Below, in pieces: positions 6,515-51,580 of a stretch of DNA of 64,000 nt. The position numbers and the translations under genes were made by a program. The notes beneath the pieces were generated by a model. That model made no database searches. It saw only the letters and a list, made by a program, of their open reading frames with translations, and was not told the origin of the DNA. This stretch comes from Macrostomum lignano (Eukaryota): NCBI GenBank assembly GCA_002269645.1, contig NIVC01000238.1, positions 103,118-167,117 of the forward strand. Direction: 5' to 3'. The first letter of the stretch is position 1, and every line of letters starts with the position of its first letter.

Positions 6515-7062
6515 ATGAAGCCACCTAAAATGGTCATCTGCTTACTCAGCCTGCTGTCCGTCGCGTCCGGAGTCTGCGTCCGCTTCCGCGTCGTCCCCGG
6601 TTGCCCCAAGAACGTGAGCGACCTGTCGCAGGTCAACGGAGTTCGAGACCCTCGTGTCTGCTCTGTGGAGTGCGCAGTGCGACCCAACTGCACCGCCGTG
6701 TTCAAGCGAGACGGCACTTGCTATCTGGCCACTGCCGCTCAGTATGAGGCGCTGTGGAGACCCCTGGACTGCGTCAGCGAGGTCAGTCGGTATCTGTTGT
6801 CCTGTATCTGAAACAGGTCGTACTTTTGTGCGGTTTACCTTAGCAAATGTGACTGAATGTTTTAGGTCGTTGACGATCGGCTTTCCAATTCTGCTGAGGC
6901 AACAAGTTTTAAGACTGAGCTTGCCACCACAAGAGCCACAACTACTGCCACCGCTGCAGCCTCCACTGCTGCTCCAGCCTTAACTGCTACTGCAGCCCAA
7001 CTGCTGCAGCCTCAACCACTACTCCAGCCTCTACCACTGCCACTGCTTCTAAAATCATCAAG
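6515..7062 (+). CDS. PAN/apple-mucin gene copy 2 (exons 6515-6781, 6866-7062; probable further exon)
   Basis: Signal peptide MKPPKMVICLLSLLSVASG; GAG|GTCAGT donor; tttag|GTCGTTGAC acceptor; one missing C at about 6996 (gcagcccaact); AAG|GTATGC donor at 7063. Confidence 0.75.
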
Positions 7063-10955: not shown

Positions 10956-12032
10956 ATGTTTTTTAACAATAAAAATAAAATGCCTACGATTCAGACTTCA
11001 GCGCTCACTGTCTCCTGCCTGCTCAGCCTGCTGTCCGTTGCGTCCGGAGTCTGCGTCCGCTTCCGCGTCGTCTCTGGTTGCCCAGGAAACGTGATCGACC
11101 TGTCGCAGGTCAGCGGAGTTCAAGACCCTCGCACCTGCTCGGTGGAGTGCGCAGTGCGACCCAACTGCACCGCCGTGTTCAAGCGAGACGGCACTTGCTA
11201 TCTGGCCACTGCCGCTCAGTATGAGGCGCTGTGGAGACCCCTGGACTGCGTCAGCGAGGTCAGCCGGCTTTTCACCTTTGCTGTTGGACCAGTTTTGTGT
11301 AATTTGATCAAGCCAACCATCATTCAGGCATAACTGTGAACTGCGCTATTTTATGTCCGGATTTTTTAGGTCGTTGACGATCGGCTTCCTTTCACCTCTG
11401 CCGAGGGAACAACAAAAGGTTTGGAGCTTGCCAACACTTTGCCCGTAGCCTCAACCACTGCTCTAGCCTCAACCACTGCTCCAGCCTCAACAACTGCTCC
11501 AGCCTCAACCACTGCTCCAGCCTCAACCACTGCTCCAGCCTCAACCATTTCTACAGCCTCAACCACTGCTCCTGACTCAACCATTTCTACAGCCTCAACC
11601 ACTGCTCCTGACTCAACCACTGCTCCTGACTCAACCACTGCTCCTGACTCAACCACTGCTCCTGACTCAACCACTGCTCCTGACTCAACCACTGCTCCTG
11701 ACTCAACCACTGCTCCTGACTCAACCACTGCTTCAGCCTCAACCACCACCACTGCTCCAGCCTCAACCACAGCTTCAAAACCGGAAGTCAAAATTGATGG
11801 CGGAACTCTAGCTGCAACAGCGGTTGAAAATGCCGACGATAAGACAGTTTCCGAAGTTTCGACACCGACTGAATCGAGTACTGTGTTCATTGCCTACAAA
11901 GAAGCAACAACAAAACCTGCTGAAGTCGCCAAGCCAACAACTGCCGTTCGGGAAGCTGCTTTTCGTAGAACAACGATGAAAAGTGATGAAAAGGGAATTT
12001 TGGAGAAAGTTGGAGATTTCTTGCTTGGATAG
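10956..12032 (+). CDS. PAN/apple-mucin gene copy 3, intact (exons 10956-11258, 11370-12032)
   Basis: Signal-like LSLLSVASG + PAN core; 111-nt phase-0 intron; exon 2 in frame with ORF 11421-12032: (TTAPAS/TTAPDS)n then a charged tail without Cys domain. Confidence 0.85.
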
Positions 12033-14181: not shown

Positions 14182-15504
14182 ATGCACCTGCCACATCACA
14201 GAATGCTGTCTGTGGCCTCTTGCCTGCTCAGCCTGCTGTCCGTCGCGTCCGGAGTCTGCGTCCGCTTCCGCGTCGTCTCGGGTTGCCCCGGAAACCTGAC
14301 CGACCTGTTTCGGGTTAACGGAGTTCGAGACCCTCGCGTCTGCTCTGTGGAGTGCGCAGTGCGACCCAACTGCACCGCCGTGTTCAAGCGAGACGGCACT
14401 TGCTATCTGGCCACTGCCGCTCAGTATGAGGCGCTGTGGAGACCACTGGACTGCGTCAGCGAGGTCAGTCGGTCTATCTTGCTTTGTGATTAAAAATTGT
14501 TTTTGGGTGATTTGAGGCAAATGGGGCAACATAAAAATCAAAACTGCAGACTGAGCGAATGCAAAAATTATTGGATTAAAATTTCCTAGAACAACTTGTA
14601 TAAAGCAATGTCTATTAAACAAAGATAAAACTCGATACGCTTCAAGCCAATGCCGCTCTTTTTTTAGGTCGTTGAGGGTCGGCTTCTATCCACCACTACT
14701 GAGGGAAAAAGTGCTGAGACTGACTCTGTCTCCACCACTGCTCCAGCCTCAAGCACCGCCACTGCTCCAGCCTCAACCACCGCCACTGCTCCAGCCTCAA
14801 CCACTGCCACTGCTCCAGCCTCAACCACTGCCACTGCTCCAGCCTCAACCACTGCCACTGCTCCAGCCTCAACCACTGCCACTGCTCCAGCCTCAAGCAC
14901 CGCCACTGCTCCAGCCTCAACCACCGCCACTGCTCCAGCCTCAACCACCGCCACTGCTCCAGCCTCAACCACTGCCACTGCTCCAGCCTCAACCACTGCC
15001 ACTGCTCCAGCCTCAACCACTGCCACTGCTCCAGCCTCAACCACTGCCACTGCTCCAGCCTCAACAACTGCTCCAGCCTCAACCACCGCCACTGCTCCAG
15101 CCTCAACCACTGCTCCCGTCTCATCCACTGCGCCAGCCTCAACCACTGCTCCAGCCTCAACCACTGCTCCAGCCTTAATCACCGCCACTGCTTCAGCCCC
15201 AACCACTGCTCCAGCCTCAAGCACTGCTTCAGCCTCAACAACGGATCCAGCCCCAACCACTGCTCCAGCCTCAACCACTGCTCCAGCCTCAACCACTGCT
15301 CCAGTCTCATACACTGCTCCAGTCTCAACCACTGCTTCAGCAAGCAGCACTGCGTGCGCATCAGCAGATCAATACTGCGGGATCGAAGGCGAATACCAGC
15401 AGCATTGCAGCAGTGATGTTCATTATATGCAATGCTCCAACTTTAAGTACATTCAGAGGCAGTGCTCTCCCGGTACAAGCTGGTCCGCTGGCACATGCCC
15501 TTGA
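14182..15504 (+). CDS. PAN/apple-mucin-ChtBD2-like gene copy 4, intact (exons 14182-14463, 14668-15504; about 372 aa)
   Basis: 204-nt phase-0 intron; exon 2 VVEGRLLS...(TATAPAST)n...CASADQYCGIEGEYQQHCSSDVHYMQCSNFKYIQRQCSPGTSWSAGTCP*. Confidence 0.85.
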
Positions 15505-17559: not shown

Positions 17560-17645
17560 GCCAGTACAAGTAGTTAAGCAATTTTTTGATACTTAACGTT
17601 ATTGAACGGAAAAACGTATTATGAATTATTTTCTTCCGAAAGGTA

Positions 17646-18844
17646 TGTGATAAATAGGCAATTAGATAATAGCATGCACGGTGAGCAATTATTTAGGCCC
17701 TAGACAAACCTATTGGAGCGTTCGGAGATTTTAAAGCTATTAATCCTAATCGCCTATCGCCGGTCGGCGAGTCCTACCAGTCTTTCTCCAATAGCCGCAG
17801 GTACAGTACAAGAAAATAAAGAACACGAGGAAACACAAAACGAAAGATTTAGAGAGTGATAATCCTATTTCAGAATAACTAACTTGATTGACGGTTTAAT
17901 TTGATTAGCTGAGTTACAAGATTCAACAAGATTCAATTACAAGATGCAATTCGCGGCGCAGATAAATTGACACAGATGATAATAACGATTAATAACTAAT
18001 AAATTAATTACGCAACTGGCAAGCGGATCTCAGCTGAAGAAGAAGGAGGCACCGAACACAGGACCACGGAGAAAGACTCCTAACCCCTGGCCTAAGCCAG
18101 AACCTACTCTCAAACGAGAGCCCTGCCGAACCGACCGTTCAACGGAGTACCGACTAAATTCTATCGGCACTGCCCTTCAGTGTAACACTGAGGCCCTCGG
18201 GGTCGAGGCCGCGTACTTGATCAGATCCGACAGTCTCTATCTAACCGCGCTTGATAGCGACGACTTCAGACAGAAATTTGCCGTAGACGTTACGCCACAA
18301 GACTACTGCGGTTGGGCGGGAACAAAGATATGGACCGGGGGTGATGAAATCAAAACGCCTCAAAGCGCGAACCAACAAGGGGAGGAAAAGTCGGGCCACC
18401 GGCCGGGAACTGGACAAGACAAAACCGGGGAAAAGGAGAGAGACGAGATCCGATTGCCAAAACACACCTTCATATATAGTCAGAGTCACAACCCCTCAAA
18501 ACCCCCTCAAGCCGGGTGGTGGTCGTCTGGCCGGCCGCTCGCTTAAGCCGAATTGCACTGTGCCCGCGGCGCCGGGTAGAATTGAACTTGCCGCGTGCCA
18601 GGGTCCAGGCCGGTTCTGATTGGCTGACCGCGCAAAGCTAGGGTTCGCATACAAACTCAACCCTCCGCTGAGTCACAGATGGCGTCTAACTCTAACCTGT
18701 TTACGCAAAATTGATTCCAACTAACAAGGAAAAAGTACACCAAAAACGTATGACTAAACTAAAGCAAAATAACAATTCAATAACAATATAGAAACTAATG
18801 CAGTCAATTTACAACAAAATACACGCAAAGATGCTCACACTACA
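17646..18844 (-). repeat. 3' LTR (1199 bp)
   Basis: TGTGATAAATAGG...ATGCTCACACTACA; about 4 differences seen versus the other LTR (3 single-base indels, 1 substitution). Confidence 0.97.
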
Positions 18845-18860
18845 CTCCCCCCTCCTAAAA
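18845..18860 (-). promoter_or_regulatory. Polypurine tract
   Basis: TTTTAGGAGGGGGGAG abutting the 3' LTR on the element sense strand. Confidence 0.9.
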
Positions 18861-19525
18861 GAAATAGAGTACAAAGGAAGAAAAATTTGAAAATTCGAAA
18901 TACGCGTAACATACTACTTCCAGTAAGCAAATGAGTACTATATAATGAATTTCGCGTTTACGGGAACCAAAATTCGCAAAACAAGCAATGTTACAACGAG
19001 AATAACTATAGCAATCAGGGGAATAACGCAATGAACACAATACAATTCTTTGACACGGCAAAACGCAATCAAATACATAAGCAAAGTTACTATGCAATAC
19101 GCGGCACGACAAAACACAACACAAGCAAATCAATAAATAAATCGAAACAAATCGCGACAGAACGCAACGTTTACGCAAACTATGGCACGACTTTCTACAA
19201 TCGAAAACTTAAAGCAAAACGCATGCTACCCATCACCAAGAACAAATAACGCGTTGACGCATTTTACAAAAATTAATTAAATTACTCCTTCTCGACGTGC
19301 TACGATGAACCTTATCGGCTGGCAAAATTTTATTACTCGCTGATTTAACTATCCGCACCTCCCCCCTCCTAAAAAAGGTAGGGTGGACGCTCCGACCCTC
19401 ACTGTCTCCACAGCGGAATTCTTATCGCAATATACCACGACGCTTATCTCTATCGGGTGCCTCGACGATAATTAACTCACGCCCACGCTCCCGTGGCGGA
19501 CTAACACTCAGCGCGCGAAGACTAT

Positions 19526-19914
19526 CGCCCATTGGCTGCATTTTACGGTCTTGCCCAGGACCAATCCCCGTGGCGAAATTCACCGCCCAATGGCTGCAGT
19601 TTTCTGTCGTGCCCAGGACAAAACTATAAATTCACCCGACCGGGCTCCTTTCTTTCGCACTTCAGTCGTCTTGTGGTTGCTTCTTTTGGTAATTGAACTC
19701 TTCCAACGGCTGCAGTTTAACGTCATGCCCATGACGTCGCTTTTCTATCTTTCTCTGACTTCTTTCGTCTCGTGGTTGCAGTTTAACGTCGTGCCAGGAC
19801 GTCTTTTTTGTCGATTTCTGTCCTAGCGGTTGCAGTTTAACGTCTTGCCCAGGACGCTTGCTTAGTTAGTTTCTCTCCTAGCGGTTGCAGTTTAACGTCT
19901 TACCCAGGACGCTT
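19526..19914. repeat. Six dispersed copies of a ~30-nt motif GGYTGCAGTTTAA-NGTCKT-GCCC-AGGACN in the element 3' non-coding region
   Basis: Hairpin cores at 19547-19562, 19605-19620, 19721-19736, 19787-19801, 19841-19856, 19896-19911. Confidence 0.85.
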
Positions 19915-20494
19915 CAGACATTTCTAGCTGCAACATGTGACATGTCGATCAGCTGTAAGTTAGACTTATTTTTGCGTCAAGCAGTTTCTGACTCAAGCAA
20001 TTTAAATAATATTTTTGTGTTGTTTTTATGATGCTTTTACAATTTTTATGTTTTTATCGAATATTCACGCATGTCAGTTCTACTGCAAGACTGTTTTTGA
20101 ATAATTTTAATAATAATATTTATTCCTTAATAATTTTATCGCATAATAATATTACCGATGGAACCGCAGACGACTTCAATCTGGGCCCTTTTCGATTTCA
20201 ATTTCTGCTAGCAACTTCAATTGTTTATCTCTTCTATGGTCGTCTATGGTATTTCTCTTTCGTTAGCGTCCTGGAATCTACCAGGTGTGGCAGCTCGAGC
20301 AGTTAGTCTTCAACTCCTGCAACTGCAGTGTCAACATCAGCACTTGCAAGTCTTTATTATTTTTTTCTATTGACTATTTTTCTCCGGTTCCATTTTCGTT
20401 CAACAAATTTCTCGCGTATGTCTCGACAAGTTACTATTAGTAATACAATTGAAATTTTCGTCCCGACAGTGCCTTTCGTTTCTATAGACTCCAT

Positions 20495-23400
20495 TCAATG
20501 ATAACCGTATCGTTCCGGGGGTCTAATCGCCGCGCGGTTCCGCAGCCGCGGTATCCAGCTAACATTATTCATGCCTGCCCGCTGCGGGGGCGTACTGTGC
20601 ACTGGGCTCAGATGCATTAAATTCGGTGGAGTGCGCACAGGAATCTGCCTGGCCTGAGACCCCGCAGGACTCGCCTGCGCCTGCTGGTTTGCATTGGCCG
20701 CTGTCTGAGTATTTTCGACTGCTCTATTCATATTACTTTCAGTAGCTTCGTGAGCTCTCTCACGTTGCAAAAATCTAATTCTCTCTGGCCTCTGAATCTC
20801 CACTTGGACTCGTTCTGACTCCTCCGAGCCGTCATCACTAGCACTTCCAGCTTCCTCTTCTCGATATTGACGCAACTTTTCTTCTGACAAGTAGCAGGGC
20901 TTTGTTCTGTCTACTGTCACTACGTCATGAATTCTGACGGGTTGCTCTATTCGGTCAACCTTTGGACCGGGTTCAATTTTTAAATTTTTTCCATTATTTC
21001 TTACTTCAAGCACTCGATACGGACCTACCCATTTCCTATTCGTATCATAACAATTCTGCGTATTCGCTATCCAGACCAGGTCACCTGGCTGATAATACTG
21101 CTGGAATACTTTCGTGTCATAATTCGATTTCTGCCGCCTGACTGATATTTGCTGCTTTTCTCTGGCGATTCTATACGATTCCATGCACTTCTTATACAGA
21201 TCATGTAAATGTTTATCACGGGTCTTGCGCTCCGGTGCAGGCAATCCGAGCTCAGCATCAACCGGTAGCCGCATCTTTCGACCATAGACTAATTCGAACG
21301 GGCTAAACTTATTGCTTTCACTGACCGTGCTTCGCTGAACCATCAAAGCGTGCGGAAGCACCTCATCCCATGCCAAACTGAGTTCACTCTGAGCTAATCT
21401 GATTCCATCTTTCACTACTCTGACCATGCGCTCGCAGCGACCGTTTGCCTGCGGATGGTAGCTAGTAGTATGGCGCAAATCTATTCGGAAATTTTCGGTT
21501 AACGATTTCACTAATTCTGCAGTAAACGATGTACCTCTGTCTGATATGAATGCTTCAGGGGCACCATGCCGAGTGATCCACTCTGTGTACAGGGCCCAAG
21601 CTGTACTTTCAGCTGTACAATCTCTCAGCGCTTTTACCTCTAGCCAGCCCGTAAAGTGATCAACCATCAGCAGGAGGTACTTGTTCCCCCGTGCTGTGGC
21701 GTTGAACGGACCGGCGAAATCTATATGTACTTTCTCGCCCATGTAACTGCTGACTTTGGTTCTAAGGGCGCTCGTGGCTTCGGCCCGTATTTCTTTCTTG
21801 TCTGGCACTCAGTACAAGTCTTAATATATCTATCTAAGTTCGTTGAATAGTTTGGCCACCAAAATCTCTGTCGAATCAAATCTTTTGTCTTTGAAATACC
21901 GCCGTGGGCCATTTGATCGTGGTAAGCTCGAAACAACTGCTGCTCCAGGGCTTGGTTTTCCGGCAGTACAGTCTGCTCAAATTTTCGGCCTTCGGAATCT
22001 ATCCAATTCCTGTAAATTATGTCATTTTTCACTAATAGCTGCTCATAATCGCTAAATAAAGACTTATAACTGCGGCTCATTCCAACCCATTCATTCTTGG
22101 GCGGACAGGGCTCTCCCTGTCTGAGCTTTTGCTTGAGCAGCAGCAACTCTGGCTGGCTCTCCTGCAGTTCTACAATTCCCGCTGGCGTATCGATATTAAT
22201 TGCACCGCAGTGGACTGTTGCTGTCTTCGTCGCACTGCAAGTGGGGCATTCCTCATGGTAGCGTTTCGGGGGACCATCCCGCTGAGGTCTGCGACTCAGG
22301 GCGTCTGCGTTACCATGGGCGATCCCTTGGCGGTACTGAATTGCAAAGTCATATTCTTCCATTCTCGAAATAACTTCAAATTGATCAAACTGCTCAAGAA
22401 TCATGTTCCATCTTCCTAACATGCCTTTTGCACCGTGGCACTTGCGTAGCCATTGGAGGGCCGCGTGGTCTGTCCTGACCTTGAAACGACGGCCGACCAG
22501 ATAAGGCCGGTAATGTTCTAAGAAATATATCAGCGCAAACATTTCCTTCATCGTAGTGCAGTAATTCAACTGATGCTCATTTAACGGATGCGAAGCATAG
22601 GCTATTACTTTTTCTTCCCCATCTTGCTCTTGTAATAAATTTCCACCTATAGCTACGTCACAGGCGTCGACATCGAGGATGAACGGTCCCGCGTCGCTAT
22701 CGAACCTGGGGTAGCTCAGTACAGGTGCGCTTACTAACTTCTGCTTTAAAAGATCGAATGCCTTCTGGCAACTGTCATCCCACTTATACTTGACATCTTT
22801 TCTAGTTAAATTATTCAAGGGCTCACTTATTCGCGCAAAGTCTTTAATAAATCTGCGATAGTAGCCGGCTAAGCCTAAGAATCCGCGCAGCTCAGAGATA
22901 TTCTCTGGCCGGGGCCATGTTTGGACTTTTTCTATCTTATCTTTGCTGGTATAGATACCGTGCTGGCAGACGGTGTGCCCTAGGAAGGTGACTTCTTTCC
23001 GAAACAGAAAGGTCTTCTCTGGCTTGATTTTCATTCCAGCATCTGCTAATCGAGAGAAAATTAATTCTAAATTTACTAGCATTTCTTCGAAATTCTTGCC
23101 TGTGCAAATTACATCATCTAGGTAGAGTAAGGCAAACTTATAAGCGTAATCGCCTAAGATCTTCTGCATTATGCGCTGAAAGCAAGCGGGTCCATTCGTG
23201 ACTCCGAAAGGCAAAACTTTCCACTGGAACAGGCCATCATGGGTTCGAAACGCTAATTTCTCGCGGTCAGTCTCTCTGACCTTCACTGACCAATAAGCGC
23301 CGACCATGTCTAGGGTGCTAAAGTACATGTTGCCTGCCAGGGATTCCAGCGATTCTTGAATTAGCGGTAACGGAAAACTGTCCTTCTTAGTCTTATTATT

Positions 23401-25271
23401 TAACTGTCTGAATCACAGCAAAATCTGAATTCTCCGGACTTCTTCCGGGCGAGAACAATAGGGCAACTCCACTCAGATTCTGAGGGCTCAATCAAATCGT
23501 GCTCTAATAGCTGCTGCACATGCCCGCTAACAAATTCTCGTTGCTCAGGGCTTTGCTTGCGCAGGGGAATTCTGACTGGAATTTCATCGGTAGTCTCAAT
23601 CTTGAATTCGCCCATCTGGGTCTTGCCGATATCCCACTGATCCTTCGAAACTATATTTTGATAACGATGTAATAATTCAATTACTTTTCTCTTCTGAGCC
23701 TCACTTAAATCGGTCTCGTTTAAGCGGAATTGCTCCCTAAGTCTATCAGCTTCTTGCACCGTAATTGCTGCCTTCGATTGCTTCTGCGCACCTACTTCTA
23801 AATCAGTTTCTGACATTGCGAAAAGTTCTACATCTTCCTTCAGCGTTTGATACTGCGCAACTACCTCATCCTTATGAATTGTCTGTGCCTCTTCTGTCAG
23901 GTTCATTAATCTAACGTAAGTTTCGCCGAATTCGTCCAATCTAGTAATAGCTTTAGCTACTAATGGCTCATCTTTCTCGCTAATTTGACTCCGGCCTGAA
24001 ATAAAGCCGAGTTCTGCAGTTTCCGGAGTATCTTTACATTTAGCCTTGACATAAATTTCGCTCATTGGTGCTATAGATACTTTCTTGACTACTTGCAGTA
24101 GGACGCAACGCGTTTCATCACTCGTTGTTACAAGCGGAATTCTGCGATCACTAAATTCTAAGGATTTTCCTGCTATATCTAATTTAATTTTATGCCTAGT
24201 TAACAAGTCGATGCCTATTATTGATGATGTTAGTAAGCCTTCAGCAACATAGAATGGGTGCGTAATCTCGCAGTCCCCAAATCTGACGCGCAATGCTACT
24301 TGGCCTAATAAATTTGAAGTCTGGCCATTGGCGGATCGCATATTCACTGAGCATGGCTTCAGACTATGATTGCTGGATAGAGGCGTTGATATAATTTATT
24401 ATCAATTAGGCAATTTGAGGCGCCGGTATCAACTAATATTTTTTCGCTTATCCGTTAATCTGGCTATCGAGGAATAATCCTGAATTCACTAATTGGCTAG
24501 ATATGTCTGCTTCTACGGTCTTCTCTCGCTTCTCTGTTGCTTTCTTTTCAGCTGCCACATCTCGCTGGATGGCTGTCTCTAACTTCCTTAATTCTTGCTT
24601 CATTTCCCTAAGTTCAGCTCTAAGTTCTGCTGTCGTGGCACTCTTGTCAGGTTCTTCTTTCGTTGATTCTTCTTGGACTTTCTCTACCAAGCATTGGCGC
24701 AAGTCCTTCAATTCGGTTCTTAGATCTGATAATTCTTTTACTACCTTAGATTCGTCTGCTGAAGCTTTCTTTCCTTCTACTTCACTAAGTCGCAAGTCTA
24801 TGCTGTTTAATGCACTTCTCTGAGCTGCTGCAGCTTCGCTTCGTTTCTCTAATTCTTCTGTCAACGCCTCTGACTGTCTAGCTAAGCTCGCTGACTTCTG
24901 TTTGTCAATTTCTGCTAATCTGCGTTCCTCGTTTGAGCAAATTTTAACATTGACCGCTCTCTGTTTCCTACTATGAGTAGTATCGTTAGTGCGAATAAAT
25001 TTTACTGTCGCCCTCTGGCGCAGAAAATGCATAATTTCGTAATCAGTTGCTATATTAGTATTAGTCACATGAAAGAATATATCTCTATTATCGCTATCTC
25101 GCAGAAATCCGTAGCCTCTGTAATAATTGTACCAAACTAATTGCCATATTCTACATTGACTGAGCTGTCTTGCTGGTCCTCTACTGCTGCAGCTCTTCTA
25201 TTGGGAGTGAATCGGTTTAATGGCTGGGGGCGGTTGGCCCTCCCTTGGTGCCGCCCCGTCGGTAGTTTAAA
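20495..25271 (-). CDS. pol: Pol polyprotein: CSD - coiled coil - protease - RT - RNase H - integrase (five 1-nt breaks in this sequence)
   Basis: ILVDTGAS and IIGIDLL (PR); LYLDDVI (RT); ILDVDAC...TDHAALQWL (RH); HDQMAH...CTEC, HIDFAGP, ISDRGTSF, ANGRCERM, WVGPY (IN). Confidence 0.93.
24946..25152 (-). CDS. Cold-shock domain embedded in the retroelement polyprotein
   Basis: EYG/LVWYNYYRGYGFLRDSDNRDIFFHVTNTNIATDYEIMHFLRQRATVKFIRTNDTTHSRKQRAVNV; RNP1 (RGYGFL) and RNP2 (DIFFH) match the CspA/Y-box KGFGFI and DVFVH motifs. Confidence 0.85.
25203..25271 (-). promoter_or_regulatory. -1 ribosomal frameshift signal
   Basis: T TTA AAC in gag phase (25271-25265), 7-nt spacer, stem GGGGCGG/CCGCCCC, loop GGGAG able to pair with downstream CTCCC. 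Confidence 0.8.
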
Positions 25272-26452
25272 GAATTTCGTCTAACTGGGCAGTCTCTGGC
25301 CAGGTGAGTTTCTTCGCCGCACTCATAACAGGCCTTTCTCGCATTTGGCGCGTTCGCCCCCGAAGGTTTGAACCTGTCATTGGCCCCTCCGGCCTCGTGA
25401 CCAAAGCGTGGCGGGCGTGTCATGGCGGGCCTGACAAATGGCGAAGACTGCCTATTATAGGGTCTCGAGTAACTGCTCATGTGATGCTGTGGCCGAAAGC
25501 TATTCGGAGGCTGCACTGGTGCCTGTGGCCTATAGCTTGGGTTCATTTGTCTATGGGCGAACCTGGGTTGCCATTGCCTGTAGTCGAACTGAGGCTGATG
25601 ATTCTGGTACGATTGGTACTGCGAAGGATAGTTGCTCGGGGAAGCAAACTGAGGTCCAAATGACTGGTGGCCTTGCCCCGTGCTGGGTGCTGCTACAGGC
25701 GTCTGTTCCTTCCCTACTTGAGCCGTTAACGTATTCGAGCCCTCTTGCTTCCTTCTACTCTTTTGGCTACCTGGGTTTGCGAGTTCTTCGAGGATCTCCT
25801 CGTTCTTAGCTGCAGTCAATAAATCTTGAGTCTGATACTTCGATTCATGGGTTCTACGATAGGCAATAACTGCGCGCCTGACTTTATAATTTGCTATGCC
25901 GGCTTCAAATCGTTCAGAAACTCGCTCTCGAGCCTGATTCTCTAGTCCTGCTTTCCTAACTAATTCAACTAGTGCGTCGTAAAATTCTTCTAATGATTCG
26001 TCTTCCTTCTGCTTGCGGTTCATCAGCTCTAGCTTCGCTTCTTCCTTCTGTCCTACGGGCTTAAATTTGTCCTTTAAAGTCTTTTCGATGCTTTCGAAAG
26101 ATTCGGTGCTCGCTAGGCCTAAGTTAATGTAAACCTTGTAGGCGTCTTCGTCTAGGAGCGACAATAGCTGATACACTTTGGCCGATTCATCTATACCGTT
26201 GCCTTGACAGTAGTTGTTGAAGATTCTTAGAAACAGTTCGAAATCTGAGCCAAGTCGGTATGGCTTGGGCTTTGCTACGCTGTTATGCGACTTCAAAATC
26301 ACTCTAGGTTCGGGATTTTCGGTTTCCATTCTTCTTATGCGGTCCTGCAGTTCTCTCACTACTGTTCTCAAATGTTCGGCCTCATCTATTTCGCCTTCGT
26401 TCCTAATCTCAACTGACTTCGATTCCTGACTATTTTCTCCGTCCTGCGCCAT
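25217..26452 (-). CDS. gag: Gag (capsid-like region + CCHC zinc knuckle), 411 aa
   Basis: Retrotransposon gag motif RKQKEDESLEEFYDAL; CYECGEETHLARDC; uninterrupted ORF. Confidence 0.93.
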   Translation of the reverse strand: MAQDGENSQESKSVEIRNEGEIDEAEHLRTVVRELQDRIRRMETENPEPRVILKSHNSVAKPKPYRLGSDFELFLRIFNNYCQGNGIDESAKVYQLLSLLDEDAYKVYINLGLASTESFESIEKTLKDKFKPVGQKEEAKLELMNRKQKEDESLEEFYDALVELVRKAGLENQARERVSERFEAGIANYKVRRAVIAYRRTHESKYQTQDLLTAAKNEEILEELANPGSQKSRRKQEGSNTLTAQVGKEQTPVAAPSTGQGHQSFGPQFASPSNYPSQYQSYQNHQPQFDYRQWQPRFAHRQMNPSYRPQAPVQPPNSFRPQHHMSSYSRPYNRQSSPFVRPAMTRPPRFGHEAGGANDRFKPSGANAPNARKACYECGEETHLARDCPVRRNSLNYRRGGTKGGPTAPSH

Positions 26453-26958
26453 TGCTAAGTTTCAACCAATTGGAATTTCTATTACTGCAACTTCAGAAAG
26501 TACAACTTGTAAAGCTATAACAATTTCAATAATCTAGCTTTCTATTTTATCTAATGAGCGGAATCGGTCGCCTCGCTCGCACTGGCAATAACTGATAAGA
26601 AAAACTGAATGTACACTGAGACAAATTCAACCAATGTACTCTCTAGTGCGCGCACTCGCAGACTATGCTGATAAACACTAATAAAATTTTCAACTGTAAA
26701 CAAAATCTACTTTCACACGCAAGTTTCTATTAAAGTGCTAATTTGAGTTTAGAAAGTCAATTTTATTTTTCCCACTCCTAAATCCTATTCAGTATTTTGG
26801 GGTAACTGGCCAACCGCAAAACCACACCTAATGCGGAATTGCTGCACACTGCGTGGTTGACGAAATAGCCGCTACGAGCCTGGAACAGACTCGTTGAATT
26901 TTAGTCTAAGCTTGCTCACTTAGAGCGCCTACCAATAAACTGCCGCCTGCTAACTATT

Positions 26959-26978
26959 GGATTCCCAGGGGCTCCACT
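26959..26978 (-). promoter_or_regulatory. Primer-binding site
   Basis: AG-TGGAGCCCCTGGGAATCC directly after the 5' LTR (TGG is complementary to tRNA CCA); cognate tRNA not assigned. Confidence 0.7.
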
Positions 26979-28178
26979 TGTGATAAATAGGCAATTAGAT
27001 AATAGCATGCACGGTGAGCAATTATTTAGGCCCTAGACAAACCTACTTGGAGCGTTCGGAGATTTTAAAGCTATTAATCCTAATCGCCTATCGCCGGTCG
27101 GCGAGTCCTACCAGTCTTCTCCAATAGCCGCAGGTACAGTACAAGAAAATAAAGAACACGAGGAAACACAAACCGAAAGATTTAGAGAGTGATAATCCTA
27201 TTTCAGAATAACTAACTTGATTGACGGTTTAATTTGATTAGCTGAGTTACAAGATTCAACAAGATTCAATTACAAGATGCAATTCGCGGCGCAGATAAAT
27301 TGACACAGATGATAATAACGATTAATAACTAATAAATTAATTACGCAACTGGCAAGCGGATCTCAGCTGAAGAAGAAGGAGGCACCGAACACAGGACCAC
27401 GGAGAAAGACTCCTAACCCCTGGCCTAAGCCAGAACCTACTCTCAAACGAGAGCCCTGCCGAACCGACCGTTCAACGGAGTACCGACTAAATTCTATCGG
27501 CACTGCCCTTCAGTGTAACACTGAGGCCCTCGGGGTCGAGGCCGCGTACTTGATCAGATCCGACAGTCTCTATCTAACCGCGCTTGATAGCGACGACTTC
27601 AGACAGAAATTTGCCGTAGACGTTACGCCACAAGACTACTGCGGTTGGGCGGGAACAAAGATATGGACCGGGGGTGATGAAATCAAAACGCCTCAAAGCG
27701 CGAACCAACAAGGGGAGGAAAAGTCGGGCCACCGGCCGGGAACTGGACAAGACAAAACCGGGGAAAAGGAGAGAGACGAGATCCGATTGCCAAAACACAC
27801 CTTCATATATAGTCAGAGTCACAACCCCTCAAAACCCCCCTCAAGCCGGGTGGTGGTCGTCTGGCCGGCCGCTCGCTTAAGCCGAATTGCACTGTGCCCG
27901 CGGCGCCGGGTAGAATTGAACTTGCCGCGTGCCAGGGTCCAGGCCGGTTCTGATTGGCTGACCGCGCAAAGCTAGGGTTCGCATACAAACTCAACCCTCC
28001 GCTGAGTCACAGATGGCGTCTAACTCTAACCTGTTTACGCAAAATTGATTCCAACTAACAAGGAAAAAGTACACCAAAAACGTATGACTAAACTAAAGCA
28101 AAATAACAATTCAATAACAATATAGAAACTAATGCAGTCAATTTACAACAAAATACACGCAAAGATGCTCACACTACA
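26979..28178 (-). repeat. 5' LTR (1200 bp)
   Basis: Near-identical to 17646-18844; followed on the + strand by TSD GGTA. Confidence 0.97.
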
Positions 28179-29065
28179 GGTAATTCAGACTCTGCCTTTA
28201 AAACAAGCTTACTAAAGCGAGTTGTATCAAATATTCGACAGGTCGAAATGTCATGTTAGTTTTTTGAGCTCCCCAAATGTAGCCCATTCTTGGTAAAACA
28301 AAATCATGTCATCCACTTTTCCGTACAGCAACCTGACGACATTGACGTCGATGAAAAATATGTACTCTTACATTACATCGACGGATAGCAACATCACACG
28401 TAATACGATAGAAATTTTCTTCTAGCAGCTTTTTGCCAATGGTTTGGCAAAGCAAATGAGGAATCATCACAAAAAGAAAGTTTATGCAATTCTGAGATTT
28501 CGCCAAAAATGAAATTTCTACTAGCTTGTATTTTTCTTTGCAAACAATCTATGTCGATTTCTGCTTCTGTTGCTGTACTTGCTTACACATTGAAATTATA
28601 TCAGGGGCACGAAATTCTTGCAAAAAAGTTGTTTGTTAGTTTCAAGAGCAAGTCTCCAAATTTCCAAGTTTTTGTTGCTAGGGTATTGGCTTTGTTTTAA
28701 TGCTTTTATCTGTAAGCAAGTGGAAACAATGGAAACCCAATGTATGTTTGCAGGATTGACATGCGCCACTGGTCACGCCTCTCTAAGCAAGCAGAAAATG
28801 ATGCGCTCCAATCCTACAGTGTGACAGTTGTGACAAAGCTGCACAGGCACATAGCAGCATCCGTGAACAAAAATACATTTCGAAGCTTAGAGAGGAATGC
28901 CTGACAACGCTGCAAACAAGTTTCGCTCAACCTGAACGTTGCAGCAAGCTTTAAATTCTCGCTATTACCATCGGCCGAAAGTCGCTCATTCAATCTTCGA
29001 CATGCAGTTTATCCTGATTAATAAATGCACTAGATCTAGTTAAAGAAAAATAATCTTACACATAC

Positions 29066-29939
29066 ATGAATCGTTACGGTATGCTTGGTCGGGCCTACTG
29101 CCTGCTCAGCCTGCTGTCCGTCGTGTCCGGCGTCTGCGTCCGCTTCCGCTTCGTCTGCGGTTGCCCCGGAAACGTGACCGACCTGTTTCGGGTTAACGGA
29201 GTTCGAGACCCTCGCGTCTGCTCGGTGGAGTGCGCAGTGCGACCCAACTGCACCGCCGTGTTCAAGCGAGACGGCACTTGCTATCTGGCCACTGCCGCTC
29301 AGTATGAGGCGCTGTGGAGACCCCTGGACTGCATCAGCGAGGTCAGTCGGTATCTCTTGCCTTGTGATTCAATTGTTTTTGGATAATTTTTGCAGCAAAA
29401 AAGCAAAAGTGCGTGCTGGGGTAATGCAAAAGTATTCTCCCTGCAAATAAAACAATCTCTATAAAACAAGTTGAGATGTCGGAAATGTTTCAGCCAATTT
29501 CACTCATTTATAGGTCGTTGAGGATCGGCTTCTATCCAACATTACTGAGGAAAAAAGTTTCGAGACTGACACTGCTCCAGCTTCAACCACTGCTCCAGCC
29601 TCAACCACTGCTCCAGCCTTAACCACTGCTCCAGCCTCATCCACTGCTCCAGCCTCATCCACTGCTCCAGCCTCAGCCACTGCTCCAGCCTCAACCACTG
29701 CTCCAGCCTCAACCACTGCTCCAGCCTCAACCACTGCTCTAACAACAGCTGACACTGCTCCAACAACAGCTGACACTGCTCCAACAACAGCTGACACTGC
29801 TCCAACAACAGCTGACACTGCTCCAACAACAGCTGACACTGCTCCAACAACAGCTGACACTGCTCCAACAACAGCTGACACTGCTCCAACAACAGCTGAC
29901 ACTGCTCCAACAACAGCTGACACTTCTCGAACGCTTTGA
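29066..29939 (+). CDS. PAN/apple-mucin gene copy 6, intact (exons 29066-29341, 29514-29939)
   Basis: MNRYGMLGRAYCLLSLLSVVSG + PAN core; tatag|GTCGTTGAG acceptor; (TTAPAS)n then (TADTAPT)n; TGA 29937-29939. Confidence 0.85.
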
Positions 29940-46200: not shown

Positions 46201-48594
46201 CACTGCGGTAGCTGTCCTTGTTTCACCACAGGCACTATAGAGAGGCAGGAATTCGCCCTAAACTTTTTAGCAAAAAATTGACGATATCTCCCTGGATGCT
46301 TTGACTTTCGAAATGTAAATGCAAAGAGTCAACCGAGGTTTTTTTGCGATTTTTACTGTTAAATCTAGGAAAACAATCTAGGAAATTGTCAGTCTCCATT
46401 GAGAATTTGGACTGTGAAGCCATGATTTTGAAGCCATGATCTCGTAGTAAACCATGTTTTTGCGAAATCTCACCTTTGAGTTGTAGATCGCAGCCCGTCG
46501 GCCCCGCCGCTTCAGATTCTCCTCGCCGGGGCCGCTGGACTCCGCCTCGTCTTCGTTGTCGCTGGTGAGGCTGTTGGCGCTGCCGCGTCGCTTGATCTGC
46601 GCGCGCGTGCGGCACGAGAAATTGTGCGAATCGTTATAACAAATACAATGATGACGAAATCAAATAATAATAGAAATAACTTTGAGCTTGGCTGGATCCA
46701 AGAGCTAGAATTTCACAATACGCATGAAAATGCTCTAAATCGGCTGGGATATATCCAATAAGGAAAAAGCATTATTATATTGCTTCAGTATAGTTTACTC
46801 TCAGTATGTTTTGATGATTGCTCCAAATCAAGGAGGTGGAAGGCAGGACTGCACATTCCCCTGAGACACATATGTAGTGACCTTCAATTACTCCATCGTC
46901 AGGCATTTACACACTCTGTACACCTCGGGGTTGGCCCAGATAGGCGACAACTGCACAACAAGCCCCCTCCGGGCCAAATTAATGTACGGATTTGTACAAT
47001 ATTTCTTACAGGTAACTGGCGAGAGAGCCGCTCTGCCCGGTCTAAAGAGGTACTACGCATTATAATATAGAATTTTGCCCTGCTGCTCTGTTTTCTGAGA
47101 CGTACCCCTCTGGTTTGAAACCCAAACAGGAAGTTGGTCAAAGCCTATGGAGTTTCTCGATATTTCGCCAATAAAAATGCTGACTGTGAAATGCGATTTA
47201 TAATATAATAGGCACTCAGTTTAAGACATGGGTTGGCAAACTCCGGCCCGGCAAACTCCTTTCCTCTCTCCTCTTCTGTCTTCTCTTCTCTATCATCTCC
47301 TCTCTCCTCTCCTCTCTCCCCTCCTCCGGCCCGCATTCTCTAGGTTCTCTATTTGGCCCTTGAGGTAAAAAAGTTTGCGAAACCCTGGTTTAAGGCCTAA
47401 TATTTTCCATATACTTAGTAGAACGAACAGGCATTTAATATTGAATTCACTTTATATAATGTCGTGAAAGACAGAAATAGGGTACACAATAAAGACAACT
47501 ATTTAAAAAAACACAATTCCGACTTTTTAAGCGCAAATTAGCCATGATTGGCAATAATATTTAAGCTCGCTCGTTCTAGACGCGAAATGCTTAAATGCTT
47601 TGCACTTTACACGGGCCAGTATTTGCCCACTATTCATTGACTACCCTTATTGACAATTCTGCAGCAAAATAGTTCTGGAAAAGTACATTTCCAGTCGCTG
47701 ATGACTGACTCCTGTTCCGCTAATTTATGTGGTCTATTACGCCACGACTCACCCAAGCTCGACCCCAGTGGTGAATCTGAAAGTATTATCACCTCTTAAT
47801 CTTCATCCCAATTTAAGTTGAGCGAAGCATTTCGCCTCACCTCTCTCCTCCTCTCTTTCTGGCTAGTTGAGCCTGATCAATTTTCCTCTTTTTCTCCTCA
47901 TAATTCAATTGGAATGCAGAGTACGAAACAGGAAGTCATCAAGTTGCAGGCTCGGGTGCATGTTGCCACTTTCTGATTAAGTTCCTATACGCTCGTAATT
48001 GTTGATGCCATCGAATGGGCGTGAAATTTCTATTCTGACTTACAGTTTTAGCCCTGATAAGCAAAAACCACTCGGATAAGCAGTTTGGCTGATTTCACTG
48101 CAGGAAAACCAGGAGAGACTGGGATAAACGGTTCCGACAGCCTGGGTGGCTACGCCTCCTTCACGGGATTCGGCGGCACCAACGGTCAGCCGGGCTACAA
48201 CAATCCCGCTGACACCCCAAGCAATAGCAACCACGGCGGCTGCGGCGCCGGCTGGCTCGGCAGGGCCGTCAGCCCAAGGCGGAGCTCTTCGGACGGAGAG
48301 AGAGGCGGCAGTCTGTCCGACGGCTGGGTCGGCGGCAGCGCCGGAAACGGCAGCGTCTGCGACGGAGGCTTCGGGGGAGGCGGCGGAGGCGGCAGCAGGA
48401 CCAGCTCACTGAAAGGCGCCCCTGGAGCTGGCGGTGGCTTCAGCGGCGGCGGTGCCGGACTGGGCTACGGCCACAGCGGCGGCGGCGGTGGCTCCTTCTG
48501 CAGGGGCGGCTGCGTGTTCGGCGGCACCTGGACCGGCGACCAGGGCTTCGTGTCCGTGCTTCTGGAGTCGGCCGCCTGCGACTCGCGCACCTGA
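37288..48594 (+). CDS. Secreted PAN-like + ALK/LTK glycine-rich-domain gene, copy B (exons 37288-37330, 37429-37776, 37870-38190, 48104-48594)
   Basis: Spliced signal MAEQCLSLKLAFLFVFCSLVLRVQG; DCLAKCQRVSC...C; GSIQSVLINTTGCYLIKAAGARGG; all introns GT-AG phase 1; exon 3 is 321 nt as in copy C. Joining exon 4 across 9.9 kb is inferred. Confidence 0.75.
38261..38365 (-). mobile_element. Partial tRNA-SINE (head + part of core)
   Basis: gaaatcgaacccccgaccttcaagtcg...cgacgctctaacc matches the 33.5 and 42.9 kb copies. Confidence 0.7.
39812..39970. mobile_element. hAT-type MITE (159 bp)
   Basis: TIRs TAGGGGTGTTCGGG...CCCGAACACCCCTA; perfect 8-bp TSD TTCAGCCT (39804-39811, 39971-39978); internal CCCGAA/CCCGAC repeats. 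Confidence 0.9.
41271..42363 (+). CDS. Nested gene fragment, Gln-rich/acidic low-complexity protein (exons 41271-41314, 41403-41704, 42275-42363)
   Basis: Phases compatible (2/2, 1/1) and GT-AG sites; MSNENSLDTGNEAGSEASTSTSATGQDVDQPPLQLPQQRIQQQQQ...EPDEDSECFYSFNDETDRE...; no terminal exon found. Confidence 0.6.
42622..42930 (-). mobile_element. tRNA-derived CORE-like SINE
   Basis: Homologous to 33268-33620 over body and head. Confidence 0.75.
42911..44593 (-). repeat. 20-27-bp minisatellite derived from the SINE 5' end (GGGGTTGTAGCCTAGTGG)
   Basis: About 80 units of ccactaggctacaacccc / ccatcaggctacaacccc, contiguous with the SINE head. Confidence 0.9.
46474..46596 (-). CDS. Isolated symmetric exon, 41 codons, with a kinase pseudosubstrate-like motif
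   Basis: gcag|ATC...AAG|GTGAGA; IKRRGSANSLTSDNEDEAESSGPGEENLKRRGRRAAIYNSK; GC-rich amid AT-rich DNA. Confidence 0.65.
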
Positions 48595-51580
48595 TGCCAC
48601 TGCAACCGCTTGTTGAAGTGGGGCTTGGCCAGTAATATTTTAACTCTGACGGTCACTGTTTAGGATATTCACAACCCTTAATCTGATTAGAGCGCTCTTC
48701 TATATGTAATCAATTTATACATTATGCTGTTAAACCAATTAATCAGTTTCAATACCTTAATTCGCAGAACTTTGAATTCAAACATATTCGCACAATACTA
48801 CTGCTTGGAATGAGAACATTGTCACTAGTGCTGGACTTCAGAGTTGAGTTACATGTAAGTGTAACTACTCACCAAACTTCTCAACTTTTTAAAGTGCATA
48901 GCTTGAAACCCAAGCGATGTCAAGGCGAATCGTTGTGACTTTCACTCAAGATTTGTTAGATTTCTAATCTGCTTCGCTTGCATGCTTAGAAACCATTTTG
49001 CTGTTTTCTTCCTGAAATCACGTCAAACTGAACTGTTATTTAACTGATTCTTGAATCTTTAACTGCTACTGACTTTGCACTCAGACAACTCAAAAGGTTT
49101 TCAATTCCGGCTAATTACGAACTAATAAATACTGAAAGCACTCGGACGTCCCATGCAAGCCGCTCGTCTTTTTTTCCTACCAGAGGATTTCTGGAGGTTT
49201 TTTTGGACGAGCGGAATAAATCTGTGTGCTCAGCTGTCTTCCAGTGCCTGCTTCTGGCTTCTAGACGGAAAGCTCTATGAATATGAATCTTCTCTCAATA
49301 TAAAAATGAACTGCGTGTCTGTGTTTCTGTGTGTCCGTGTGTCTGTCAGCTGTGTTTCTGTGTGTCTGTGTTTCTGCGTGTCTGTGTCTGTGTGCCTGTG
49401 TTTCTGTGTGTCTGTGTCTGTGTGCCTGTGTTTCTGCGTGTCTGTGTCTGTGTGCCTGTGTTTCTGTGTGTCTGTGTCTGTGTGCCTGTGTTTCTGTGTG
49501 TCTGTGTTTCTGTGTGTCTGTGTGTCTGTGTGTCTGTGTGTCTGTGTGTCTGTATGTCTGTGTGTCTGTGTGTCTGTGTTTCTGTGTGTCTGTGTTTTTG
49601 TGTGTCTGTGTGTCTGTGTGTCTGTGTGTCTGTGTGTCTGTGTTTTTGTGTGCCTGTGTGTCTGTGTGTCTGTGTTTCTGTGTGTCTGTGTTTCTGTGTG
49701 TCTGTGTGTCTGTGTGTCTGTGTGTCTGTGTTTCTGTGTGTCTGTGTTTCTGTGTGTCTGTGTGCCTGTGTGTCTGTGTGTCTGTGTGTCTGTGTGTCTG
49801 TGTGTCTGTGTGTCTGTGTGTCTGTGTGTCTGTGTGTCTGTGTGTCTGTGTTTCTGTGTGTCTGTGTTTCTGTGTGTCTGTGTGCCTGTGTGTCTGTGTG
49901 TCTGTGTGTCTGTGTGTCTGTGTGTCTGTGTGTCTGTGTGTCTGTGTGTCTGTGTGTCTGTGTGTCTGTGTGTCTGTGTTTCTGTGTGTCTGTGTGTGAA
50001 AGGAGAGATGAGATGAGAGGATAGAGAAGTTTCAAAGGACTCAAGGGACGTAGAGAGAGGCAGGGGCCAGAGACAGGGTTTGCCAATGCCTGCTTTAGAC
50101 AGACGTTGCCCGACATTCTGCGCGGTACCCCAGCCGACGAGATCAATGCTTCACTCAAATCTTCATGTAACACGAATTTACTCCATTTTATGTTTCCTCT
50201 ATCTTAATTATTAGCAAGTTTTTGTTTGAGTATGACCAGATTTAAGAATGCATTTAAAATAGTTCTGGGTATTTGAATTCTGCGGGTTCAAAATCCATGT
50301 TTTAGAACATGGCCGGTTCAAAATAGCTTATTTTATAGCTATTTATTAGTTTGTAAATTTATTACAGAACGTTCGCTTTTGTGAAATATGAAATCATACT
50401 ACTGTCATAAGCATGAAAACTTCGCAGCGCTTATCTCGAATTCATACAAGCCATGTTTCTTCCAATAGAATAAAGTAAATCCAATATAAATTTTTGTATT
50501 CATAAATTTTTGGATGTTTGTCAATATCCTCATTTCAAATTTACTTTGGAGAACCTGGTCTGGATATGTCAGTTGACTGCACCGATGAAGCGCTATTTGA
50601 AAAAGTTGTGCAAATTTCGTTTAGAGCCATTTGATCCCAGTCCAAAACCTAGGATAGGCTCCATTATTTGAGCGAATTTCAGATCCGGTTGTGAAACTCC
50701 AACAAAGAATCTACATTCAGCAGCTGCTCTGTTTGTAAAACCTGAGAGTTTGCACAGCGCTTTGAGCTTTTAGTGATCGCTGCAAAATGGAGTATTATTC
50801 TTTTTACTGGCATTGATCCATCTCAGCTTTCTGACATTTTGCATTTTTCCTGTTTTTTGACTAAGTTGATGTCTTCATTAGCTACACTGCAGATTCGTTA
50901 CGCCCCTCTAGTTCAATTCCTGTTGCTAAATGGCAGTTGTCAGTTAGGTGCGGTGTGTCTACACGTAGGAGAATATGGCAGGCTAGGAACAACGGTTAAA
51001 AGTCGCAGTTCACACACACAGGTAGACCAGCTGCAACCGTTTTGCACCGGCAGGCATTGGCTCCAATAATTTTAAGGCAATGCAATCTTCTGATTGGCAT
51101 CTCAGAGGCTGAGAAGCTAATTGGCTCAGAAACGTATTATGAGTATATAATTCGTGCAGCACAGAAATGAAACTACACCAACACGTCCCAGCTCTAAAAA
51201 GCAAGTCTGAGTACTAAAAAATTATTTTCTTAGGAAAGCAAGCCATAATAGCCATGTTTTCACGCCTAGAAGTTGCAGGCTGCCTGCTCAGCCTGCTGTC
51301 CGTTGCGTCCGGTGTCTGCGTCCGCTTCCGCGTCGTCTCCGGTTGCCCCGGAAACGTGACCGGCCTGTCGCAGGTCAGCGGAGTCCGAGACCCTCGCGCC
51401 TGCTCGGTGGAGTGCGCAGTACGACCCAACTGCACCGCCGTGTTCAAGCGAGACGGCACTTGCTATCTGGCCACTGCCGCTCAGCATGAGGCGCTGTGGA
51501 GACCCCTGGACTGCAGCAGCGAGGTCAGTTGGCTCTCTGTCATTTCTTTTTGTCTTGTGTTAATATTTCTTATTATGAAT
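48066..51580 (+). repeat. Segmental duplication unit B (diverged)
   Basis: Colinear with about 50-3020 apart from a microsatellite replacement and an insertion near 50.3-50.9 kb. Confidence 0.85.
49311..49997. repeat. (CTGTGTGT)n compound microsatellite
   Basis: 687 bp of 8-nt units with CTGTGTTT/CTGTGC variants. Confidence 0.97.

Follow-up and report, generated by a model that had tools for sequence, protein, structure and literature searches.

A Ty3/Gypsy retrotransposon lineage of the flatworm Macrostomum lignano carries a cold-shock domain (CSD) in its polyprotein, at the junction of nucleocapsid and protease. The domain has a predicted cold-shock fold, RNA-binding motifs and a fixed position, it is retained in six families and in a second organism, and it is subject to purifying selection. 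It is a real, selected and lineage-wide domain addition, i.e., the capture of a host domain by an LTR retroelement. The copy described first lies in a stretch of 64,000 nucleotides of contig NIVC01000238.1, called the window hereafter. As to its role, we give a probability of about one half to the reading that the CSD is a second binder of single-stranded nucleic acid beside the lone zinc knuckle, acting as an accessory nucleocapsid and RNA chaperone.

The Window Copy of the Element

The element spans positions 17646–28178 of the window and is read, with all its parts, from the minus strand. It is young and all parts are present, with a broken pol in this copy. The 5′ LTR (26979–28178; 1200 nt with TG…CA ends) and the 3′ LTR (17646–18844, delimited by LTR comparison) are 99.67% identical, with one mismatch and three gaps, and the same four bases flank the element on both sides as a target site duplication (28179–28182 and 17642–17645). 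A primer-binding-site-like stretch (26959–26976) starts with TGG, 2 nt inside of the 5′ LTR, and the polypurine tract was recognized by its sequence at 18845–18864. The gag ORF (25217–26452; approximately 411 aa) has an open frame and encodes a capsid-type domain (Pfam Retrotrans_gag, E 2.2e-5), a Q/P/R-rich stretch and a single CCHC zinc knuckle (zf-CCHC, E 4e-5). This knuckle, the nucleocapsid, lies at 25286–25333; some 45 codons of the pol frame separate it from the CSD downstream.

The CSD itself forms the start of pol (24943–25154), as indicated by Pfam, a profile control and the predicted fold. It is followed by a helical, probably coiled-coil spacer of approximately 150 aa (24487–24942), which gives weak coiled-coil Pfam matches only, and by an aspartic protease (24174–24486) that is broken twice here and matches Pfam gag-asp_proteas in a sister frame (E 3e-10). 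A first-pass annotation had placed the CSD between Gag and protease. This position is correct, but the two domains are not adjacent, as the predicted coiled coil intervenes. Further downstream are a reverse transcriptase (RT; 22969–23447; Pfam RVT_1), an RNase H (22350–22782) whose C-terminal end holds an insert of 12–15 aa (22350–22392), a mark of the lineage, and an integrase with zinc finger, core and low-complexity tail (20495–21954). Sister pol frames have the same order of protease, RT, RNase H and integrase, with Gypsy-type RT and RNase H, and the 120 pol homologs listed carry Gypsy-type Pfam sets. Judging by general features, the lineage most likely belongs to the Gmr1/Osvaldo clade, of which the trees described below contain no reference elements.

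The pol of the window copy has five frame breaks, near 25140, 24450, 24372, 23412 and 21760. The first of them falls inside the first strand of the CSD, the fourth in the RT and the last in the integrase. As they occur despite near-identical LTRs, they may be assembly errors. No chromodomain or env was matched by Pfam in the element, and there is no ORF of more than 117 aa between the end of pol and the 3′ LTR that could be env. Six repeats in the 3′ untranslated region (19515–19915) have diverged but share a core of about 30 nt; they are possible RNA or DNA binding sites. A canonical heat-shock element is absent from the window LTR and from the fetched stretches of seven other families.

Some further observations concern the surrounding sequence. 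A second polypurine tract at 19359–19384 is 85% like the true one and lies 514 nt upstream of it; it may serve as an additional plus-strand primer or be the remnant of an older LTR. The spacer that separates protease and RT gives a weak dUTPase-like match at 23853–24095 (E 0.046). Elsewhere in the window, a repeat of about 300 nt occurs in six copies (2693–2989, 6516–6812, 10993–11289, 14198–14494, 29076–29372 and 51258–51554) plus inverted ones, a repeat of about 1 kb occurs in three copies (1–1145, 48020–49147 and 60605–61638), and minisatellites are numerous.

The pol frame overlaps the end of gag at a slippery heptamer of the X XXY YYZ type (25265–25271), which is kept in all 24 loci in which a script located the region, out of 30 examined. 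The heptamer is likely a −1 frameshift site. A G/C hairpin lies just downstream (25227–25257; −16.6 kcal/mol), although it is no stronger than those of shuffled sequences (z 0.12). It had been claimed that the CSD is made at Pol stoichiometry only. The layout of the window family agrees with this, but in five related families, described below, gag and pol share a single frame. Production solely at Pol level would hence apply to the window family at most, and the single-frame families would make the CSD together with Gag, unless splicing or decay shifts the ratio.

Detection of the Domain and Its Predicted Fold

The CSD is encoded by positions 25154–24943 of the minus strand, and the match to the Pfam CSD family (PF00313) covers residues 22–85 of the reading frame 25197–24448. 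The peptides from which a CSD with aromatic RNP residues had first been proposed are present in this frame, with the EYG piece in a neighboring frame just upstream. Two of the checks suggested together with that proposal, a PF00313 search and a prediction of the five-strand OB fold, support it. The window frame reaches 29 bits in Pfam, where the cut-off is 27 (E 9.8e-7), while three sister pol frames of 1596 aa score 25.6–26 bits (E ~1e-5), slightly below the whole-protein cut-off. As a control, a profile made of host Y-box and Unr-like CSDs only was run on the 1178 stop-free segments of the window. Its sole match was the CSD frame (E 6.5e-6, the runner-up having an E of 1.4), with 24.5 bits versus at most 9.6 bits in 1000 shuffles. 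A search of solved structures with the single sequence of the window CSD gave weak matches (best E 0.004).

From five element CSD sequences alone, AlphaFold2 predicted a compact five-strand barrel (pLDDT 85). All the Foldseek matches listed from the PDB are of the CSD type (Csp, YB-1/YBX2, Unr, CRHSP-24 and Lin28), 16 of them at E ≤ 0.001. The AlphaFold model of family B likewise contains a compact five-strand CSD, from which a disordered linker leads to the protease; a fold search with this model gave protease matches only within the top 50.

In CSDs, RNP1 has the pattern [YF]-G-F-I and RNP2 the pattern [YF]-[YF]-H (PMC7825780). The window CSD has YGFL and FFH at these places. Across seven element CSDs, with identities to that of the window family of only 21–35%, G-F and F-x-H are invariant, and E-x-G, V-x-F-x-R-x-x-D and A positions are common to all seven as well. 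The element CSDs also have in common a C-terminal signature and a connection between strands 3 and 4 that is longer and helical. The conserved tryptophan in strand 1 of Csp and Y-box proteins is shifted or lost in families B–H. Pfam CSD scores range from 15.6 to 28.8 bits across the related families and P0156, a metagenome element.

Retention and Selection in the Window Family

A genome search with the window frame gave 56 matches, the best 30 of which were examined. The CSD region is present in all 30 copies and unbroken in 25; the broken ones are the window copy, two copies with a stop and two with a frame break. As the first-pass annotation implied, the domain is thus fixed throughout the family rather than inserted once into a single copy. 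A pol frame of 1596 aa is found at six of the 30 loci, three of which are identical over the compared part and are perhaps redundant in the assembly. In three of these frames, the order is leader, CSD (residues 46–113), about 150 helical residues, protease, RT, RNase H and integrase. The near-identical LTRs and the similarity of the copies (90–99%) reflect a recent spread of the family.

To quantify selection, variants shared by two or more copies were counted among the 26 distinct of the 30 loci, in a way that ignores the tree and transition bias. The CSD has 12 synonymous and six non-synonymous shared variants, which corresponds to an N/S ratio of 0.13 (p 2.6e-5 versus site counts). The ratio is 0.05 in the protease (26 synonymous, four non-synonymous), 0.22 in the coil (40 and 33) and 0.52 in the leader (eight and 13). 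The constraint on the CSD does not differ significantly from that on the protease or the coil (0.13 versus 0.22 for the coil, Fisher p 0.43). Variants found in one copy only give a ratio of 0.46 in the CSD, so that the neutral baseline is not 1 and selection is weaker than the p-value of 2.6e-5 suggests. The CSD of the window family is nevertheless under purifying selection.

Related Families and a Second Organism

Searching the genome with PF00313 gave at least 139 matches (150 of the 192 candidates were scored). They comprise host Y-box genes as well as many matches in frames of 1300–2200 aa. One copy each was read from five further families, called B, C, D, E and H. In all of these, Gag, zinc knuckle, CSD, protease and RT are in one frame without a coil, and the CSD directly follows the knuckle of Gag; in family E the knuckle is not listed by Pfam and was found by motif search. 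A search with one CSD of the B–H type gave 110 matches, among which at least two further CSD-bearing families were seen. The CSD families are 44–45% identical in RT–RNase H. Two other families, F and G, which are equally close to the window family in this region (47% identity), have neither a CSD nor the RNase H insert; both are multi-copy and have one knuckle match each.

A profile of CSD plus protease was compared with 1.84 billion representative proteins. Among the best 150 matches, 149 were new, 85 of them with the CSD only, 60 with the protease only and four with both, namely two from the same host, P0156 and P0188; since multi-CSD proteins crowd this best-150 list, other two-domain relatives may rank lower. 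P0156 consists of a CSD, a coil much shorter than that of the window family and a protease. Its gene is the neighbor of that of P0007 on a 6521-nt contig labeled as a bacterial metagenome-assembled genome. P0007 belongs to a eukaryote-type retrotransposon that is 77% identical to the window family in RT–RNase H, and the contig is probably a mis-binned eukaryotic one. The presence of P0156 beside P0007 implies that a second organism carries the window type of CSD. Sister elements with the order CSD, protease and RT, for which a search had been recommended, therefore exist in five further families of the same genome and in the metagenome element P0156.

P0188 is a single record of 1405 aa, a distant Gypsy-like pol in which a Y-box-like CSD (Pfam 49 bits) lies between two protease-like domains and is followed by RT, RNase H and integrase. 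Another metagenome element, L076 (104–6606), combines a long coiled-coil Gag and two knuckles recognized by eye with the RNase H insert, and has no CSD; about 210 residues before its protease are unexplained. The RNase H insert was found by script in five of 88 measurable proteins (out of 127), all from CSD families, and by eye in family C, P0007 and L076.

Other searches returned few relatives. A word-indexed protein search with the window CSD gave no related protein among 17 candidates, and one with P0188 gave only itself among 21, both being weak evidence. PF00313 is on record for none of the 120 pol homologs listed, which says little about the upstream part, as many start at the protease. 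The same holds for 127 proteins searched with the element-CSD profile, many of which also start there and of which only the six CSD families matched. In the ESM Atlas there was no usable match for the window family, and P0188 gave only protease clusters under 0.8. P0156 has no locus in the metagenome collection and no phage record. An alignment search with RNase H gave seven metagenome loci, in which no frame encodes a CSD, and no locus among viral contigs. Standard annotation misses the domain, whose Pfam scores are at or under the cut-off; likewise, the gene model of the M. lignano protein P0006, which is 99% identical to that of the window element, starts downstream of the CSD.

Donor and Number of Captures

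Unr/CSDE1 chains rank first when the element CSD profile is compared with solved structures. Single Unr domains score 31.6 bits; no non-Unr chain exceeds 26.7, and YB-1 reaches about 21. In hhalign, families B–H match Unr-like domains with 98.8% and Y-box domains with 82.8%. The window type is level between all candidates (B–H 95.6, Unr 95.6, Y-box 93.6, P0188 96.4). The Unr-like rows came from other organisms and were picked among matches of the element profile, which favors Unr in these alignments; the ranking among solved structures is independent of that choice. In a CSD tree of 76 columns, neither element group nests in the Unr-like or the Y-box rows. The CSDs of B–H thus appear to resemble Unr/CSDE1 more than Csp or Y-box proteins, and that of the window family is ambiguous. 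The initial comparison with Csp, Y-box and Lin28 proteins missed Unr/CSDE1, the best profile match. The profile comparisons do not support a bacterial donor. Genome rows on C3273, C3334, C3368 and L051–L062 contain tandem CSD exons about 1 kb apart and Lin28-like half-domain exons; the tandem exons are perhaps the host Unr gene.

The number of captures was approached with trees of RT–RNase H, in which long branches are involved. In an 18-row tree, one group (97/94) unites the window family and P0007 with families B–H and the CSD-less L076; the grouped rows carry the RNase H insert, the columns of which are under half filled. Within this group, a sister relationship of the CSD families is weakly supported (78/66). 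A quick tree of 40 rows without L076 joined the window family and B–H at 95, a FastTree of 121 rows did not join them, and a quick tree of 26 rows left the joining open. The two element groups are not joined in the 76-column CSD tree either, where joining is not rejected (p-AU 0.34). The simplest, though not the only, reading of these trees would be one CSD capture after the split from the line of L076; the other is a second, independent capture at this junction. The CSD of P0188 is, by its position in the trees, a separate capture: the protein is far off in the RT tree and its CSD groups with Y-box proteins (98/93).

Proposed Role

The following course of events is proposed. A Ty3/Gypsy ancestor would have captured a eukaryotic CSD at the nucleocapsid–protease junction, where the domain would have been retained next to the single zinc knuckle as another module for nucleic-acid binding. 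The domain would be made within Gag-Pol, for which the window family would use a −1 frameshift and the others the Gag frame itself, and would enter the particle with the polyprotein. It may bind single-stranded genome RNA or nascent DNA, help to select or coat the RNA and, by melting local structure, assist primer annealing and strand transfer.

In LTR retroelements, a domain at the nucleocapsid–protease junction travels into the particle and can be released by cleavage. For a CSD that has kept its binding aromatics at this place, the best reading is a second binder of single strands. In line with a role as accessory nucleocapsid, the domain stands directly behind the knuckle in B–E and H, some 45 codons downstream of it in the window family and before the protease in P0156. 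Moreover, the CSD-less sister L076 has two knuckles, which is one case only. Retroviruses also recruit proteins of this kind, as Unr binds HIV-1 Gag through NC (PMC9413769) and YB-1 supports retroviral virion production and early steps (PMC6040738). On the other hand, the CSD-less families F and G are multi-copy with one knuckle, which implies that a one-knuckle element needs no CSD, and the strand 1 tryptophan is shifted or lost in B–H. Frameshifting is usually infrequent; if this applies to the putative site of the window family, the CSD would be a minor component there.

More speculatively, recurring CSD capture could be a fourth way of building a nucleocapsid. An old marine-invertebrate Ty3/Gypsy lineage might have swapped a second knuckle for an Unr domain and would now carry an RNA chaperone of its own. 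Families that make the CSD together with Gag and those that make it with Pol would then form a natural dose series, and the captures in P0188 and the bird endogenous retroviruses (ERVs) discussed below would be convergent on the same need. We put this extension forward tentatively and consider it doubtful.

Alternatively, the CSD could regulate the translation of the element RNA outside the particle in the manner of Unr, by opening the leader, tuning the frameshift or binding the 3′ UTR repeats. This would set the Gag/Pol ratio or the switch from translation to packaging. The preference of the element profile for Unr/CSDE1 among solved structures and the hhalign values of B–H (98.8% for Unr-like versus 82.8% for Y-box domains) agree with this, as do the six repeats in the 3′ UTR and the action of Unr on the HIV-1 IRES (PMC9413769). 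However, neither element group nests in the Unr-like or Y-box rows of the CSD tree, Unr uses several CSDs in a row where the elements have one, and fusion to the polyprotein fits a role in the particle more simply. Such a translational function is the main alternative, conceivable but not probable.

A protective function is improbable, but would account for other features. Here, the CSD would shield the element RNA from silencing or decay (piRNA/siRNA slicing, surveillance), or compete with host Y-box and Unr proteins. Repeated independent capture, in 46 bird ERVs (PMC12287698) and in P0188, suggests a general advantage, and the CSD families are numerous, with 110 matches for the B–H type and 56 for the window frame. 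Yet the CSD-less families are multi-copy too, and no sequence feature specifically indicates silencing.

It is quite unlikely that the CSD is only a folded spacer or protein-interaction module which, together with the coil, times protease dimerization and in which nucleic-acid binding is dispensable. The similar constraint on the neighboring coil (0.22 versus 0.13, Fisher p 0.43) and the low Pfam scores (15.6–29 bits) would fit such a function, but the surface aromatics and the histidine of RNP1 and RNP2 are invariant, which is needless for a mere spacer, and B–H have no coil at all. Lastly, chance likeness or a one-off piece of a host gene, to which the break within the CSD of the window copy and the weak single-sequence structure matches (best E 0.004) might point, is ruled out by the shuffle and window controls, the predicted fold, the 25 of 30 unbroken copies, the five further families and the second organism.

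Comparison with Known Systems

With Unr/CSDE1, Y-box proteins, Lin28 and Csp, the element CSD shares the fold, as predicted here, and the RNP1 and RNP2 motifs. It differs from them in being a single CSD inside a retroelement polyprotein and in the longer, helical connection between strands 3 and 4. The combination of a CSD and a CCHC knuckle in one chain also occurs in Lin28 and in plant CSD proteins. In Lin28 the CSD precedes the knuckle, whereas the elements have the reverse order with the knuckle first.

Like chromodomains, an extra RNase H, AlkB and DNA methyltransferases in other elements, the CSD is an extra host-derived domain that has become fixed in the polyprotein of one lineage. To our knowledge, none of these other domains is a single-strand binder at the nucleocapsid–protease junction. 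AlkB has been described in orchid Ty3/Gypsy elements (PMC9289625) and DNA methyltransferases in LTR retrotransposons (PMC5890265). LTR retrotransposons seldom carry additional fixed domains, and every such domain has revealed a step that limits the element. Where retroviruses borrow YB-1 and Unr from the host, the flatworm Gypsy lineage appears to have built a CSD in. The domain is small and soluble, and one laboratory animal provides natural controls, as some of its related families have the CSD at Gag level, others have it at Pol level and others lack it. The contribution of a host RNA chaperone to the RNA of a retroelement can in this way be put to the test.

No report of a CSD in Ty3/Gypsy elements was found in the accessible literature; a prior annotation may exist in Repbase, Dfam or GyDB. 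The elements share their host and the basic order Gag-PR-RT-RH-IN with the M. lignano Ty3/Gypsy (Ty3/Mdg4) elements of a recent survey, in which 40 Gmr1/Osvaldo families were counted (PMC12801592). As far as the available text of that survey goes, "cold," "CSD" and "Y-box" do not occur in it, nor do "CSD," "cold" and "CSP" in five supplementary files (PMC12801592). The heat-induced Gmr1/Osvaldo family that it describes differs from the window family (PMC12801592). The suggestion of the first-pass annotation that the lineage is undescribed agrees with the literature searched, which holds no description of a CSD-bearing Ty3/Gypsy lineage. CSD capture as such is not new among LTR retroelements, for which it has been published (PMC12287698).

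This closest precedent consists of 46 bird ERVs that carry a CSD (PF00313), captured more than once and at varying positions, for which the authors suggest adaptation (PMC12287698). In both cases, an LTR retroelement has acquired a host-derived PF00313 domain. The bird elements are retroviruses, however, and in two rows of the published data their CSDs are near host copies (E 1e-24 to 1e-26) and lie outside the gag–protease junction or far from the knuckle (PMC12287698). The flatworm element CSD, in contrast, is deeply diverged, in frame, located at one junction across families and under selection.
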